Assembly (NCBI GenBank): GCA_964016885.1
Contig: OZ024745.1
Span: 111,414,001-111,478,000 of the forward strand
Direction of reading: 5' to 3'
Source: Eledone cirrhosa
Taxonomy: Eukaryota
DNA length: 64,000 nucleotides
Shown here: piece after piece, positions 44,115-63,444 of the stretch
Numbering within the stretch: the first letter of the stretch is position 1
How the letters are laid out: every line of letters starts with the position of its first letter
Made by a program: the position numbers and the translations under genes
The notes under the pieces: model-generated
Seen by the model: only the letters and a program-made list of their open reading frames with translations
Databases searched by the model: none
What the model was told of the DNA's origin: nothing

Positions 44115-44181
44115 TATTTTATCTGATGAGGACGTACTGTTGAACTTAATTCAGTACCTCTGAAATATGTATAATAAAATA
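44115..44181 (+). ncRNA. Minimal type I hammerhead ribozyme (PLE-associated)
   Basis: Stem I TATTTTAT/ATAAAATA, core CTGATGA (44123-44129), stem II GGA-C-GTACTG/CAGTAC-C-TCT, GAAA (44162-44165), near-palindromic TATGTA, predicted AUA cleavage after 44173. Confidence 0.85.
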
Positions 44182-44584
44182 TAATTGATCACAAGAATAT
44201 CTATTTTGTTAATATTTGGAATTAATATTAATAACTCTGGAAAATATTTTTTGTAGAGTGCTTCCATTCTATTGTAAAACTCATTCTTTGATGTATTCAT
44301 TGAATCTTGTTTAAGTCTTAAATATATATATATATATATATATATATATATATATATATAGTTTTGCGAGGTTTTTGATATGAAATCGTGTGTCGAAACA
44401 AATATTGTTATACTTGGGGAGGGTCATATTTGTGTAATAATATTGCCAGAATTAATAACAGAACACACTCACTGTTTGGTTGGTTTTCGCTTCTATGTCT
44501 TTTATATCGGTTAATTTAATTTATTCGGTCCTCAATGTTACCATTGACTGACCAACGGTCAAAAATCAACACTTCATCAACCGC

Positions 44585-45322
44585 ATGCAGTTCTCTGGCT
44601 ACAACCAAAGAGACAGAAACAGAGTATACGAAGGAGCCACGGAGAAGTATAAGACCCTCATAGAACTGGACATGAAAGGAATTTTCCCATTATACAGGAG
44701 CAAATCATGGAATAGCTTAGATAGGACTAGACATAAGATAGGAAAAGCCACCTCATGGTACGACAACCAGAGATATCAGAGTGTCATGTTTGTGGATGCT
44801 ACCCCTGGAGGGAAATTAGCTAACCAGTGTAGAAAGGCCCTGAGAAAGACCCACTTAAAGATTAAGGTGGTAGAAAAGCCAGGAACCAACATAAAATCCC
44901 TGATCAGCAAAACCTACCCTTTTAAGAAAACCCACTGTACTAATAGGAAATGTATTATATGTAAGGTAAACCCCCGAATAAACTGTAAAACTAGAAACGT
45001 AGTCTATAGCATAAGATATACAGAGGGTACTTGCAGAAACATGACAACAACATACATAGGCGAGACAGCTCGTAGCATAGGTGAAAGGATAGACCAACAC
45101 TGGGGGGAACTAAAAGGACGAAAAAAAGGTTCAGTACTATACGCACATGCCAGACAGCAACACGACGGTAACATAGACAACATAGAAATTAGAATATCTA
45201 AACATAGAAATGACCCAGTAGATAGGCAGATCAGAGAGGCCAGCGAAATAGAACTTAGAAGGCCAAGGCTAAACAGAAAAAATGAATGGAATAACAACAA
45301 CAAACAAACAATACTGACCTAA
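44585..45322 (+). CDS. PLE RT thumb, Cys-rich linker and GIY-YIG endonuclease (5'-truncated ORF, Neptune-like linker)
   Basis: CTNRKCIIC..NCKTRNVVYSI..YIGETARSIGERIDQH..RQIREA..LNRKNEW; open for 245 codons. Confidence 0.88.
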   Translation: MQFSGYNQRDRNRVYEGATEKYKTLIELDMKGIFPLYRSKSWNSLDRTRHKIGKATSWYDNQRYQSVMFVDATPGGKLANQCRKALRKTHLKIKVVEKPGTNIKSLISKTYPFKKTHCTNRKCIICKVNPRINCKTRNVVYSIRYTEGTCRNMTTTYIGETARSIGERIDQHWGELKGRKKGSVLYAHARQQHDGNIDNIEIRISKHRNDPVDRQIREASEIELRRPRLNRKNEWNNNNKQTILT

Positions 45323-45554
45323 GAGAAGTATAAATAAATACATACACAAGCACAATAACAACAAACACATATAAACACACACTAGTAAACTAAGATAGAA
45401 TATAATAACCAATACACAGTCACCCAAACACGAACATACATCAAACACTATACGCAAACGCATGCGCAGAGAAGACAAAAAAAATAATTAATAAAAAATA
45501 AACAGACTAAATAAAGATGGCGTAGGCATACAATACAACAAAAGGAAACATAAT

Positions 45555-45600
45555 AGCACCACTGATGAGGTTGCAGATGTGCAACGAAAGAACTTTGTTA
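45555..45600 (+). ncRNA. Hammerhead-like core in the 3' region of the PLE (stem I/III not convincing)
   Basis: CTGATGA-G-GTTGCA-GATG-TGCAAC-GAAA; 6-bp stem II at the expected position downstream of the ORF. Confidence 0.5.
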
Positions 45601-59371: not shown

Positions 59372-60100
59372 GGTTTGTGTATGTGTGTTTGTGTGTGTGT
59401 GTGTGTTTGTATATGTGTGTGTATACGTGTATAAATGTGCGTGCATATATGTGTGTGTGTGTTTCTGTGAGTGTGCACGTGTGTGTGTGTGCATGTGTAT
59501 ACAAGTATAAATGTGTGTGCGTTTGTGTTGTGTGCATGTGTATATGTGTATAAATGTGTGTGTTTGTGTGTGGTTTGTGTGAGTTGTGTGAGTGTGTGGT
59601 GTGTGCACATATGTGTGTGTGCATGTGTATACATGTATAAATGTGTGTTTGTGTGAGTGTGTGTGTGTGCACGTATGTGTGTGTGCATGTGTATACATGT
59701 ATAAATGTGTGTGCATATATGTGTGTTTGTGTGAGTGCGTATGTATGTATATGTGTGTGTGTGTGTGTGTGTGTTTGTGAGTGTGGGTATGCATGTATGT
59801 GTGTGTGTGTGTATATATATATATATATATATATATATATATATGTGTGTGTATATGTGACTGTGTGCATGCACAAATGTATTTGTGTATATGTGTGTGC
59901 ATATATGTCTGAGAGTGTGTGTGTGTGTATGTGCATGCATGCAATTGTGTATACATGTATTTGTATATATGGCCATGTGTTTGTGTGTGTCTGCGTGATT
60001 ATGTTTATGAGTGTGTGTTTGCATATGTGTGTGTGTGAGTCTGTTTATGAGTGAGTGTGTGCATATGTGTGTGACTATATGAGTGAGGGACTGTGTGTGA
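59372..60100. repeat. Degenerate (GT)n/(TA)n array
   Basis: Direct reading. Confidence 0.9.
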
Positions 60101-60354
60101 GAGATAGAGAGGGGGGAGACAAATATATACATATATATATATATATATATATATATATATATGCAAAAGGGATATTCAATTTGTTGGTAATTCAACAAAT
60201 ATAAATGTTTATAACTGATTCATAGCACTCAACAAGTTTTCTGGAGTATAATATACAATATTAAATAAATGGAAACTATATTTATAAAACCATATTTATT
60301 CTATTAAATATATTTCAAGGGTACCAAAACGCAATCTAGAAAAAAACAAAGAGA

Positions 60355-62248
60355 ATCCTGGTAAAATCTGACAAAACAAATAATTTATATGGTATGGAAA
60401 AGGACGAATATAATAACCTTATATTGAAAGAACTCAGGAAAAACTACAAAATAACATCAAATGAAAATCTTTCAATGTTAAATAGGGAAGCTTTGGAAAT
60501 TATCTATAAATTAGGCATCCAAAATAGGACAGAACCCTTTATACCCAGAAAACCGAAGATTAACCTGAAGGACCACAAAAGAAATTTTGAAATTGAACTA
60601 CTAGTCAGGCTCATCACTCCATCTAAATCAGACTTAGGCATAATTAGCAAGCATATACTAGATAGAATTATGCCACTACTTAAAAAAAAATCACACCTTA
60701 AACTATGGAACGGTACTAATGAAGTTATAGATTGGTTTAATAACATAAAATTAAAACATAACAAAAAATTCATTCAAATGGATATTGCAAATTACTACTC
60801 CTCTATTACCCCTAGTTTACTTAATAAGGCACTTATCTATGCTTCTAAACATACAGACCTATCTCGTGAAGAAATGAATATAATTCTAATATCATGTAAA
60901 ACCCTAATAGAATTTAATAATCATCTCTGGACAAGACCAAACAGAAAAAACAATTTTGATATCACTATGGGATCATCTGACTCAACGCAAGTAACGGACT
61001 TCGTTGGATTATTTATTAATAATGTACTGCATAGGAAAATGCCAGAGATGACCGGAGGTTTATATCATGACGATATGTTACTTTTAATTGAAAACCATAG
61101 CAATAGTGAAATTAATAGGAAAAGGAAATCCACAATTTTTCAACAACTTAATTTAGAAATCGAGAATAATTACAAAATCGTTAACTTCTTAGATGTAACC
61201 TTAAACCTTAGCACATGTCTTTACTATCCATTCCATAAAATTAATGAAAATTTAAATTACGTAAGTTTCAATTCTAATCATCCTAGAAATATAAAAAACA
61301 TTATTGTCAATAGCATCCAACAACGGATTTCACACATCTCTGCTAATAAAAATATTTTTGATAATAAGGCCGAATATTACAATGAAGCTTTACATAGAGC
61401 AGGATACTCGAATAAAATTAAATACATAGATAACAATAACATGACAAATCATCCTAGAATTAATTATAATAATAATAAACAATTTAACTTAAACACTAAA
61501 CCAAACAAAAAAACTAGAACTAGAAATATTATTTGGTACTCTCCCCCATTCTCATTAAGCGTTAAAACACCTTTAGCAAAACTATTTTTTAAAGCACTAG
61601 ATAAATGTTTTCCTAAAGTCCACAGATACCACTCTATTTTTTTAACAGACACACTATAAAACCATCCTACTCTACTACTATGAACATAGCACAAAATATA
61701 AATAGAATTAATAATAGAAACTTAAATTTAAACTCTAACCAAACTAACCAAGATAGCAATAATAATATTTCTAACAACAATATTCAGAATAATATTACCG
61801 TTCCGAACAACTCCAGAAAATGTAACTGTAGAATTAAATCAAACTGCCCTTTACAAAATAATTGCTTAGACAAAAACGTAATTTATAAATGCACAGTTAA
61901 AACTAGGGACAAAGTATTTAACTATATTGGTGCCACTTCTACAAAATTCAAAGAACGCTGGTATAACAATAAACACACATTTAATAGATACAATAAAAAA
62001 TCTTCCACTTCACTTTCACATTAATTTGGAACTTAAAAGACAACAATATAGACTATTCAATATCTTGGGGAACGATTTCGAAAGCACCTGCATACCGAAA
62101 TATGGCTTTCTCAAGATTCTGTAACTTGTGTATCGAAGAAATTTTTTATATAATTAACTGTCAAAACTCTATTAATCTTCAAACAGAATTATTATCTACT
62201 TGCAAACATCGCCAAAATTCCACTTTCAGATGTATTTTTAATTTATGA
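60355..62248 (+). pseudogene. PLE reverse transcriptase + C-terminal GIY-YIG endonuclease, disrupted by frameshifts near 61640 and 62022
   Basis: VKSDKTNNLY, FIQMDIANYYSSI, FDITMGSSD, GLYHDDML, VNFLDVTL, SNHP, RNIIWYSPPFS, CNC..CPL..C, NVIYKC..YIGAT..FKERW, CNLCIEE..ELLSTCKHR. Confidence 0.92.
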
Positions 62249-63383
62249 TATTCATTACACTTGACTATATCTTATACACCTTCAAAATGATCCTATTTTC
62301 TTTAAAAATTTAAATTAAAAATTTTTTAAATGATCTTCCTTCTTAATTTTTAATATTTCTACTATTTTTACCTTTTGACATTAATTTTTTAATTTTTTAA
62401 TATATTTTTTTACTATTTTTACCTTTTGACATTATTTTCCTAATGATACCCCTCTAAATATATTTTTTTTAGATGTAGATTGATAATCTTTAATTGAGAT
62501 TCTGAAAGTTTATCCTCTTTACAGTAGTTCTTCGAAATACACATTACTTTTTTCCTCTTCTTTTGATCTTCAAACTTTCACACATCTTTTGACTAAAATA
62601 ATATATAATTGAAATTAATCTCACACAAAATAATATATAATTTTCTCTATATATTTTCTGAGTAAATCATTCATCAAATTTAATGGTTAACAAACAAGAT
62701 TGGAGTTATCTTTTCCTGTTTCAATCGTGCAAACATAAAACATTATAATATAATATGTATGATAAACTATATAACTTCGCTAAATTAACAATATTCTGAA
62801 AACATTTTCAATGTTGGAACAACATCTTTGAATCTACAAATTGTTCCCCTCTTACAACTTGAACTACGTGTTTTTGTTATGTAAAATGCAAAATCAACTT
62901 CCTTCGTAACTCATATTAGAAAAATAAACAACTAATAATTGTAAATTATTTCTATTTCTATAATACTTATACATGCACAATTATTAATCTATATAGATAT
63001 TTATATACTTACAACCTGTTGTAATGTAATAAGATAAAATCTACTTACAACCATAATTCTTCATATAATATAATTGATTATATATACAATATTATAACTC
63101 ATAATATAGCTAAATAAATTTAAATTCTGGAATCATATTCCACCATTCCTGCAAATTGTTAATTCCTTTTAACGTTACTCATACATATATCCTAATTATT
63201 TAAATTCTGCATAGCGTCTAAAATAACGTTTTTTCAGCCCTATACCTCAACCTCATTTGCATACTCATCTTAATAATTTGAAATATCTGACTTTTCTTCT
63301 CTTTTCCCTTCACTATCCAAGAAAAACTTGAACCATTAAGGTATCTTTTCTTGGTTATGTCAAAATTTATAAAACAAACTTTG

Positions 63384-63444
63384 TATTTTATCTGATGAAA
63401 GCGTACCAAAGTTTTGGTACCCTTGAAATATATATAATAGAATA
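63384..63444 (+). ncRNA. Minimal type I hammerhead ribozyme (PLE-associated)
   Basis: TATTTTAT-CTGATGA-AAG-C-GTACCAA..TTGGTAC-C-CTT-GAAA-TATATA-TA-ATAGAATA; palindromic stem III. Confidence 0.87.

Follow-up and report, generated by a model that had tools for sequence, protein, structure and literature searches.

The hammerhead ribozymes closest to those described here are known from Penelope-like retroelements (PLEs). The minimal PLE hammerheads of Cervera and de la Pena (2014, PMC4209133) lie in pseudo-long terminal repeats (pLTRs), have a long helix II and a palindromic stem III, are dimer-dependent, and occur as thousands of solo copies per genome; in all of these respects they resemble the copies reported below, for which dimer dependence is a prediction. 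Small PLE variants with a short palindromic stem III that cleave as dimers were described by Lunse, Weinberg and Breaker (RNA Biol 14:1499, as cited in PMC6765202). Craig et al. (2021, PMC8557442) tabulate the hammerheads of Hydra-clade PLEs (File S2: 26 rows, 25 families), and Frangieh et al. (2024, PMC11167929) characterize the Poseidon element PAc of the lizard Anolis, in which cleavage needs the element's protein and insertions follow a two-start "tail" pattern. Our comparisons refer to the portions of these publications used here. We examine three hammerhead copies in a stretch of 64,000 nucleotides from Eledone cirrhosa (assembly GCA_964016885.1, contig OZ024745.1, positions 111,414,001 to 111,478,000 of the forward strand; "the window", numbered from its first nucleotide), together with related copies in the genome searched (3.0 Gb). 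All three place a C opposite a C directly after a short proximal stem II, and the 5' C of this 1x1 loop (position 10.4) is present in 25 of 25 families and paired in none. We put at roughly 60% the probability that, judging from sequence, these are type I hammerheads that end PLEs with Hydra-clade motifs and cut their own RNA in pairs, the invariant unpaired C being a selected contact and not a chance mismatch.

The three motifs and their stems had been proposed by an initial annotation of the window, and they stand: a pattern describing the architecture finds 3 matches where 0.01 are expected, a number reached in none of 100 shuffles. The core CUGAUGA...GAAA and an AUA triplet are common to all three copies, in agreement with a type I hammerhead, whose core reads CUGANGA...GAAA, includes C3 and G8, and goes with an NUH triplet. 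In copies 1, 2 and 3 the proximal stem II (3 bp each) reads GGA/TCT, AGG/CTT and AAG/CTT, the C opposite C comes next, and the distal stem measures 6, 6 and 7 bp; stem I has 8 bp in every copy, with 0, 2 and 1 G-U pairs. The self-complementary centre claimed for stem III is likewise present, the unit being more accurately the octamer AUAU(A/G)UAU, with A15.1 as its first base, than TAT(G/A)TA. The tails of the copies share ancestry and do not count as independent cases (87% identity between copies 2 and 3 over 108 nt, 77.5% between copies 1 and 2 over 80 nt), and single-strand folding is better than in shuffled sequences for copy 3 only (z of -1.07, -1.32 and -2.56 for copies 1 to 3). Because ViennaRNA favours a shifted register without the C.C loop in copy 2, the C.C register of that copy rests on cross-family covariation and not on folding energy.

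A fourth copy, on the minus strand in the inverted arm of element 1 (family A; core 42237-42279), is decayed, with C opposite A and a damaged distal stem, and half a hammerhead lies at about 60258-60330. A covariance model built from 25 family representatives recovers the three copies (which it contains), the minus-strand copy (42215-42293) and the half copy near 60300. Comparison with the Rfam hammerhead families, a check that the annotation had proposed, returned no match, neither at E<=10 in three local scans nor among 150 listed of 163 window matches. The window copies look like dead insertions. No variant at 63402 or 63421 is among the 40 rows listed of 49 (two contig runs of one sample, which may be that from which the assembly was made), a result that is not used as support; a look-up of sequencing runs listed no RNA run carrying the sequence.

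For comparison across families, 229 copies were clustered into 71 groups, from which 25 representatives were hand-picked on differences in flanks and stems, leaving out family H (see below), an unrelated family of two copies, and decayed or chance singletons. The partner of C10.4, at 11.4, is C in 22 families, A in 2, U in 1 and G in none. The surrounding stem II pairs 10.2, 10.3, 10.5, 10.6 and 10.7 are formed in 24, 24, 22, 24 and 25 of the 25 families, with 8, 12, 7, 11 and 6 double changes, respectively, giving a covariation score of 0.566 (inflated by sequence relatedness) against 0.262 for shuffled and at most 0.155 for slid partners. Double changes are found in 14 of 18 named pairs (stem I 8/8, stem II 6/7), indicating three covarying stems; the outer stem III pairs are invariant, being partly fixed by the search patterns. 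RNAalifold, unprompted, leaves the 10.4 column unpaired, and parsimony on a flank-only tree requires 0 changes at 10.4, 3 at 11.4, and 4-9 at other stem II sites. The covarying register begins right after A9, with no extra nucleotide between 9 and 10.1.

Some traits attributed to the subtype in the initial annotation hold for the window copies without being general. The 8-bp A/U-rich stem I is found in all three copies but is specific to certain families, no more than 4-5 bp holding generally; good pairing is confined to positions 1-4 (24-25/25), and in many families stem I is G-C rich. The G10.1-C11.1 pair is absent from the three window copies, but it occurs in four families (10.1-11.1 is A-U in 8, G-U in 7, G-C in 4 and unpaired in 6), and its absence is not new (PMC8557442). 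The predicted AUA site is seen in all three copies and in 22 of 25 families, the remaining three having AUC, with C in place of A as the cleavage base. The C-C mismatch itself, for which conservation in a larger alignment had been set as the refuting check, is retained as C.C in 22 of 25 families, but only the 5' C is invariant, a U or A being possible opposite it. That the mismatch is under selection is suggested by flanking pairs that covary while 10.4 stays fixed; this would apply to the master elements only. These comparisons describe a real and well-supported subtype, for which the best definition is a C10.4 that never varies, within a 1x1 loop, together with an AUA-NN-UAU stem III.

The Hydra-clade hammerheads (PMC8557442) are similarly of type I and located near the 3' end of (TA)n-targeting PLEs; as we read the table, almost all lack an extra base after A9 and have a long palindromic stem III, often an A at the cleavage site, and a weak or mismatched first stem II pair (U.U in 14 rows, G-C in 7/26). 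Unlike the copies here, the 26 rows include no case of a 1x1 loop following 3 bp of stem II, and stem III is AC-led (for example ACUC/GAGU) with a GUH triplet, in contrast to AUA(UA/UG/CG)UAU with AUA; the sole octopus family in that table has a different hammerhead. The minimal PLE consensus (PMC4209133) differs in having an extra base between 9 and 10.1, the G10.1-C11.1 pair, and little or no stem III; C.C at position 4 is found in none of its 56 representatives, and another single mismatch occurs in two, where it is not noted as conserved. PAc shares with the present elements a pLTR hammerhead near the start of the open reading frame (ORF), copies that keep an uncut ribozyme, and two reverse transcription start sites giving a tail. 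However, it belongs to another PLE clade, is cut inside the ORF and not about 200 nt upstream, and has a tail of 30-40 bp in place of about 90-95 nt, and no stem II loop is described for it in the portion of PMC11167929 used here. We found no description of a stem II C.C loop in the literature searched; the set of Lunse et al. may already include the C.C subtype, and the chance that the loop has been described somewhere is about one in three. Of the "possibly undescribed structural subtype" in the initial annotation, the novelty is therefore kept with this reservation, while stem I and G10.1-C11.1 drop out as defining traits; the motifs are a real variant of the dimeric PLE hammerhead, probably undescribed, and not a new ribozyme class.

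Genome-wide, the C.C pattern has 48,462 matches (1 in the reversed control), C at 10.4 opposite a non-C has 2,413, and a non-C at 10.4 has 6,722; among 100 of the latter listed, 54 belong to family H, 32 are mutants of C families and 14 are others. When the palindrome is required, the counts are 49,311 with C10.4, 2,841 with a non-C, and 1,782 with C3 changed. By eye, 96 of 100 listed among these 2,841 are point or indel mutants of C families, 1 is mis-registered and 3 are unrelated, and no family fixed for U, A or G at 10.4 is present among them. The unbiased weight lies with these two non-C searches (6,722 and 2,841 matches, 100 listed each), both of which fix U at position 7. Family H (L045-L047) has a reverse transcriptase (RT) about 48% identical, and a different hammerhead-like motif, with a 4-bp stem II that has G-C at position 4, another stem III and no AU octamer; L054 holds a decayed relative with another palindrome. 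In a metagenome scan, none of at least 116 matches had the architecture or a related RT. Eight metagenome contigs (L112, L120, L130, L133, L147, L150, L157 and L179) hold a recurring hammerhead-like motif with an extra U and a G-rich stem II; its AU-rich stem III is the same, whereas a clear stem I and a related RT are both lacking.

Stem III and its loop together make up an octamer AUA-NN-UAU (AUA-NN-CAU in 3/25 families), the centre of which, unpaired as loop bases in the monomer, is UA in 11 families, UG in 7 and CG in 7. Across the genome, octamer centres are YR in 49,311 matches, RN in 847 and YY in 419; among 100 of the 847 RN matches listed, 47 are spurious second-site matches and 12 belong to a family with a self-complementary AU centre (by eye). 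A C.C-loop family with an AU stem III centre and C as the sixth octamer base is found in L347-L358. A centre that is self-complementary in 25 of 25 families supports dimer cleavage, so far as sequence can, and favours the annotation's model of dimers formed through a palindromic stem III; the double changes of the centre (UA to CG) provide comparative evidence for it. Nearest-neighbour calculations favour the active fold of the dimer over that of the monomer in 25/25 families (median -11.6 vs -5.2 kcal/mol per unit), although the best fold predicted is a different one from both.

In full-length family C copies, the predicted cut lies about 200 nt upstream of the start codon. Insertion ends downstream of the cut (n=191) fall mainly at 40-69 nt (106) and 130-159 nt (47), with 5 at 0-9 nt; the starts of inserted copies lie some 55 or 145 nt downstream of the cut, and the two clusters match the two-start pattern of the lizard PLE. 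A (UA)n RNA end derived from the AU palindrome and priming at (TA)n was considered and rejected, only 5/191 ends being within 9 nt of the cut. Inserted copies hold an intact ribozyme and must therefore have been templated by uncut or religated RNA, from which it would follow that cleavage is slow, gated or reversible.

We propose that, in a tandem transcript, the 8-nt palindromes of two copies would pair with each other, forming a single long stem III, and the copies would be cut after AUA, which would free the element RNA from the read-through transcript. A proximal stem II of 3 bp is weak and the loop is costly (with C-G in its place, stem II is about 4-6 kcal/mol more stable in silico), and the active fold probably needs help. 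C10.4 would probably dock against stem I or be read by the element's own RT-endonuclease, this contact standing in for the loop 1-loop 2 contact of canonical hammerheads, and cutting would have the slow, gated or reversible character noted above. We hold only tentatively the more specific version in which C10.4 is an extra core-like nucleotide of a hammerhead architecture that would itself be new, and the C.C loop, in place of the canonical loop 1-loop 2 contact, a handle by which the element's own protein switches on the dimer, in about 50,000 copies and at least 25 families.

The loop families with an RT link are A, B, C, M and O, which form one clade (support 100), and E, which is their sister (96); family N is linked through its endonuclease only. 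RTs of the three window families are 56-70% identical to one another, and that of family E is 34-47% identical to those of the other RT-linked loop families over 222 columns. Family H, which is without the loop, falls outside this RT clade. These relationships fit a single origin of the loop in one clade branch, most families being without an RT link. The RT of L054 was rejected as that of family J, which is left without an RT link because the 3' end belonging to this RT stops earlier and carries a different decayed motif. RTs in L034, L338, L343 and L344 were also rejected as partners of the nearest hammerhead (the L344 endonuclease is that of family E), and a further forty regions yielded no clear link to an RT for any of the families F, G, I, J, P, Q and R.

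Several observations weigh against C10.4 as a selected contact. The representatives were hand-picked, come from one genome and share common descent, and C10.4 was set in advance by most patterns, as were the core and some of the palindrome, making the 25/25 partly a matter of construction. Taken with the metagenome scan, this could mean that a single recent expansion and the search patterns produced an only apparent conservation, an explanation whose probability we regard as close to negligible given that flanks, loops and stems differ widely between families, that RT identities go down to 34-47%, and that no alternative family with the palindrome appears among 100 of the 2,841 complement matches listed. 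C10.4 is also lost in 5.4% of genomic copies, compared with 3.5% for the catalytic C3; the two losses are of the same order, as in dead copies. In addition, the related family H is abundant without the loop, accounting for the 54 of 100 non-C matches listed above.

The partner of C10.4 also varies, with C.U in family M (12/13 copies) and a P2 subgroup and C.A in family I (7/8), and no conserved G in stem I able to pair with C10.4 or C11.4 is found within 10 nt in the 25 families. A variable partner, with no base-specific partner found, is what one would expect if the loop were a mere hinge or helix breaker, stem II having to bend or stay weak after 3 bp, where the canonical stem II ends, so that any small mismatch would serve and the C be kept by descent; at this very position, two published PLE hammerheads carry a single mismatch (S. 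purpuratus (1) with C.A and C. sinensis (2) with U.U; PMC4209133 Fig. S3). A hinge of this kind nevertheless leaves unexplained the 0 changes at 10.4 against 5-9 at neighbours, which need double changes, and the lack of any family with U, A or G at 10.4 among 100 of the 2,841 matches listed, and we judge it unlikely.

A further objection is that ribozyme mutants of the lizard PLE still insert in vitro (PMC11167929). The Cs might serve retrotransposition and not cleavage, the stem II loop being a mark that the RT-endonuclease binds so as to position reverse transcription at both downstream starts, with a slow or dispensable ribozyme. Insertion without ribozyme activity in the lizard would agree with such a mark, as would ends that gather downstream of the motif, in two clusters away from the cut, and complete copies that all need an uncut or religated template. 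Conversely, the catalytic core and the dimer palindrome are conserved together with C10.4, RTs of just 34-47% identity would have to read the same base, and the minimal template of the lizard element lies within the first 172 nt of its ORF (PMC11167929). We consider this explanation somewhat less likely again than a hinge.

Folding predictions are also partly adverse, the proximal stem II having a ViennaRNA probability below 0.1 in 8 of 25 representatives. Such values could reflect a conformational switch, in which a C11.4-G8 pair holds an off fold, the 5' strand of the core displaces the proximal stem II strand, and refolding activates the ribozyme; by inspection, the core can pair with the 3' strand in families with U-A at 10.3. 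Yet the invariant base is C10.4 and not C11.4, and families A and C, in which the proximal stem folds at 0.86-0.98, allow little of the alternative pairing, making a switch quite improbable. Finally, changing C to G barely shifts the gap between active and best fold (median 7.3 to 6.5), and simple stability gating is consequently without support. Weighing these points, we retain the selected contact at C10.4 as the preferred interpretation.

The elements that carry the three copies are summarized in Table 1. Element 3 (about 60163-63490), a 5'-truncated PLE, consists, in order, of an inverted arm, RT, frameshifted endonuclease, a 1.1-kb 3' untranslated region (UTR), hammerhead and (TA)n; its inverted arm, which has its beginning in loop 2, consequently holds only the 3' half of a hammerhead. 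The layout of element 1 is the same, although nothing of the protein survives except the C-terminus of the endonuclease, and element 2 is a short terminal fragment. Searching the genome with the element 3 RT gave 38,109 first-look candidates and 624 homologues at E<=1e-20.

Table 1. Hammerhead copies and parts of their host elements in the window (SINE, short interspersed element; R1, covariance model)
Feature	Position	Strand	Details
Hammerhead 1 (family A)	44115..44181	+	core 44123-44165; C10.4 at 44133, C11.4 at 44158; predicted cut after 44173; R1 70.1 bits (model built including this copy)
Hammerhead 2 (family B)	57434..57498	+	core 57442-57482; C10.4 at 57452, C11.4 at 57475; predicted cut after 57490; solo terminal fragment, long tail to ~57628, then (TA)n
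Hammerhead 3 (family C)	63384..63444	+	core 63392-63428; C10.4 at 63402, C11.4 at 63421; predicted cut after 63436; short end at ~63490, then (TA)n
Element 1 (family A) inverted 5'-truncated arm	42170..42336	-	94.7% identical to 44066-44233; R1 60.8 bits
Element 1 GIY-YIG endonuclease C-terminal remnant	42340..42620	+	CSLC...E...N...CLH; tblastn 42% to element 3 endonuclease
Element 1 3' end, long tail, terminating in (TA)n	44182..44321	+	
Element 2 (family B) 54-nt inverted arm adjoining tRNA-like SINE	57139..57192	-	matches 57311-57362 at 100% in inverted orientation
Element 3 (family C) inverted arm with long tail	60163..60330	-	97% to 63411-63483, ~81% to element 2
Element 3 reverse transcriptase frame, 5'-truncated	60340..61659	+	439 aa, DKT motif
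Element 3 CxCx5C linker and GIY-YIG-type endonuclease, two frameshifted pieces	61617..62248	+	CNCRIKSNC; CNLC, CKH near C-terminus

Hydra-clade PLEs are "generally" shorter than 3 kb, with DKT, CxCx5C, CxxC and CxH given as features (PMC8557442). Here, DKT (for DKG) is present in VKSDKTNNLY, as are, by eye, the CxCx5C linker and, at the C-terminus, a domain of GIY-YIG type without CCHH that contains CxxC and CxH near the conserved E and N. The N-terminal RWK motif is replaced by RWC or RWR (RRLRWCAF in a full-length family C copy, in which RW is kept and K replaced), and units of about 3.7-4.0 kb with 3' UTRs of 1-1.5 kb are longer than is general for the clade. A TA run lies within 260 nt downstream of 191 of 223 copies, in a genome that is itself TA-rich. 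Pfam and PDB searches with the RT or the endonuclease gave no useful match. The elements appear to be PLEs with Hydra-clade protein motifs, an assignment made by motifs with two reference proteins compared by eye. Both the pLTR location and the palindromic stem III/loop 3 of PLE hammerheads are present, and the linked RT and endonuclease sequence bears out the initial identification of the motifs as PLE terminal-repeat hammerheads. Non-LTR retrozymes, which are short non-coding repeats in tandem with a hammerhead in each, were rejected, there being no tandem array at the sites and RT or endonuclease sequence being associated with the motifs.

In element 3 the start of the inverted arm falls precisely within loop 2 (60330), contig joints to the opposite strand are found in the same loop, at 63414-63415, and some family A copies (L329, L384) have a shortened stem II; reverse transcription may fold back or slip at the stem II hairpin. 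Elsewhere in the window, a second GIY-YIG-like frame with CX4CXXC, probably of another PLE clade, lies 230 nt past element 1 (44552-45322, +); after it comes a core-like motif that has an extra G and in which a G-C pair closes a stem II of 5 bp (45562-45589, +); a further short core-like hammerhead motif is at 15919-15942 (-). Copies of a tRNA-like SINE occur at 56841-57139 (+), ~57830-58150 (-) and ~48650-48950, two of them facing each other on either side of element 2. The stretches 3263-4418 and 31725-32155 hold a 176-bp unit, repeated in tandem as 6.6 near-identical copies, and a related 237-bp unit.

About 50,000 hammerhead motifs of a single genome are missed by the Rfam models, and elements resembling the Hydra clade, which has been described as a small group, are abundant in this genome. 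C10.4 would provide a one-base handle on why PLE hammerheads cut so poorly alone and on their role in vivo, with 25 natural variants as controls.

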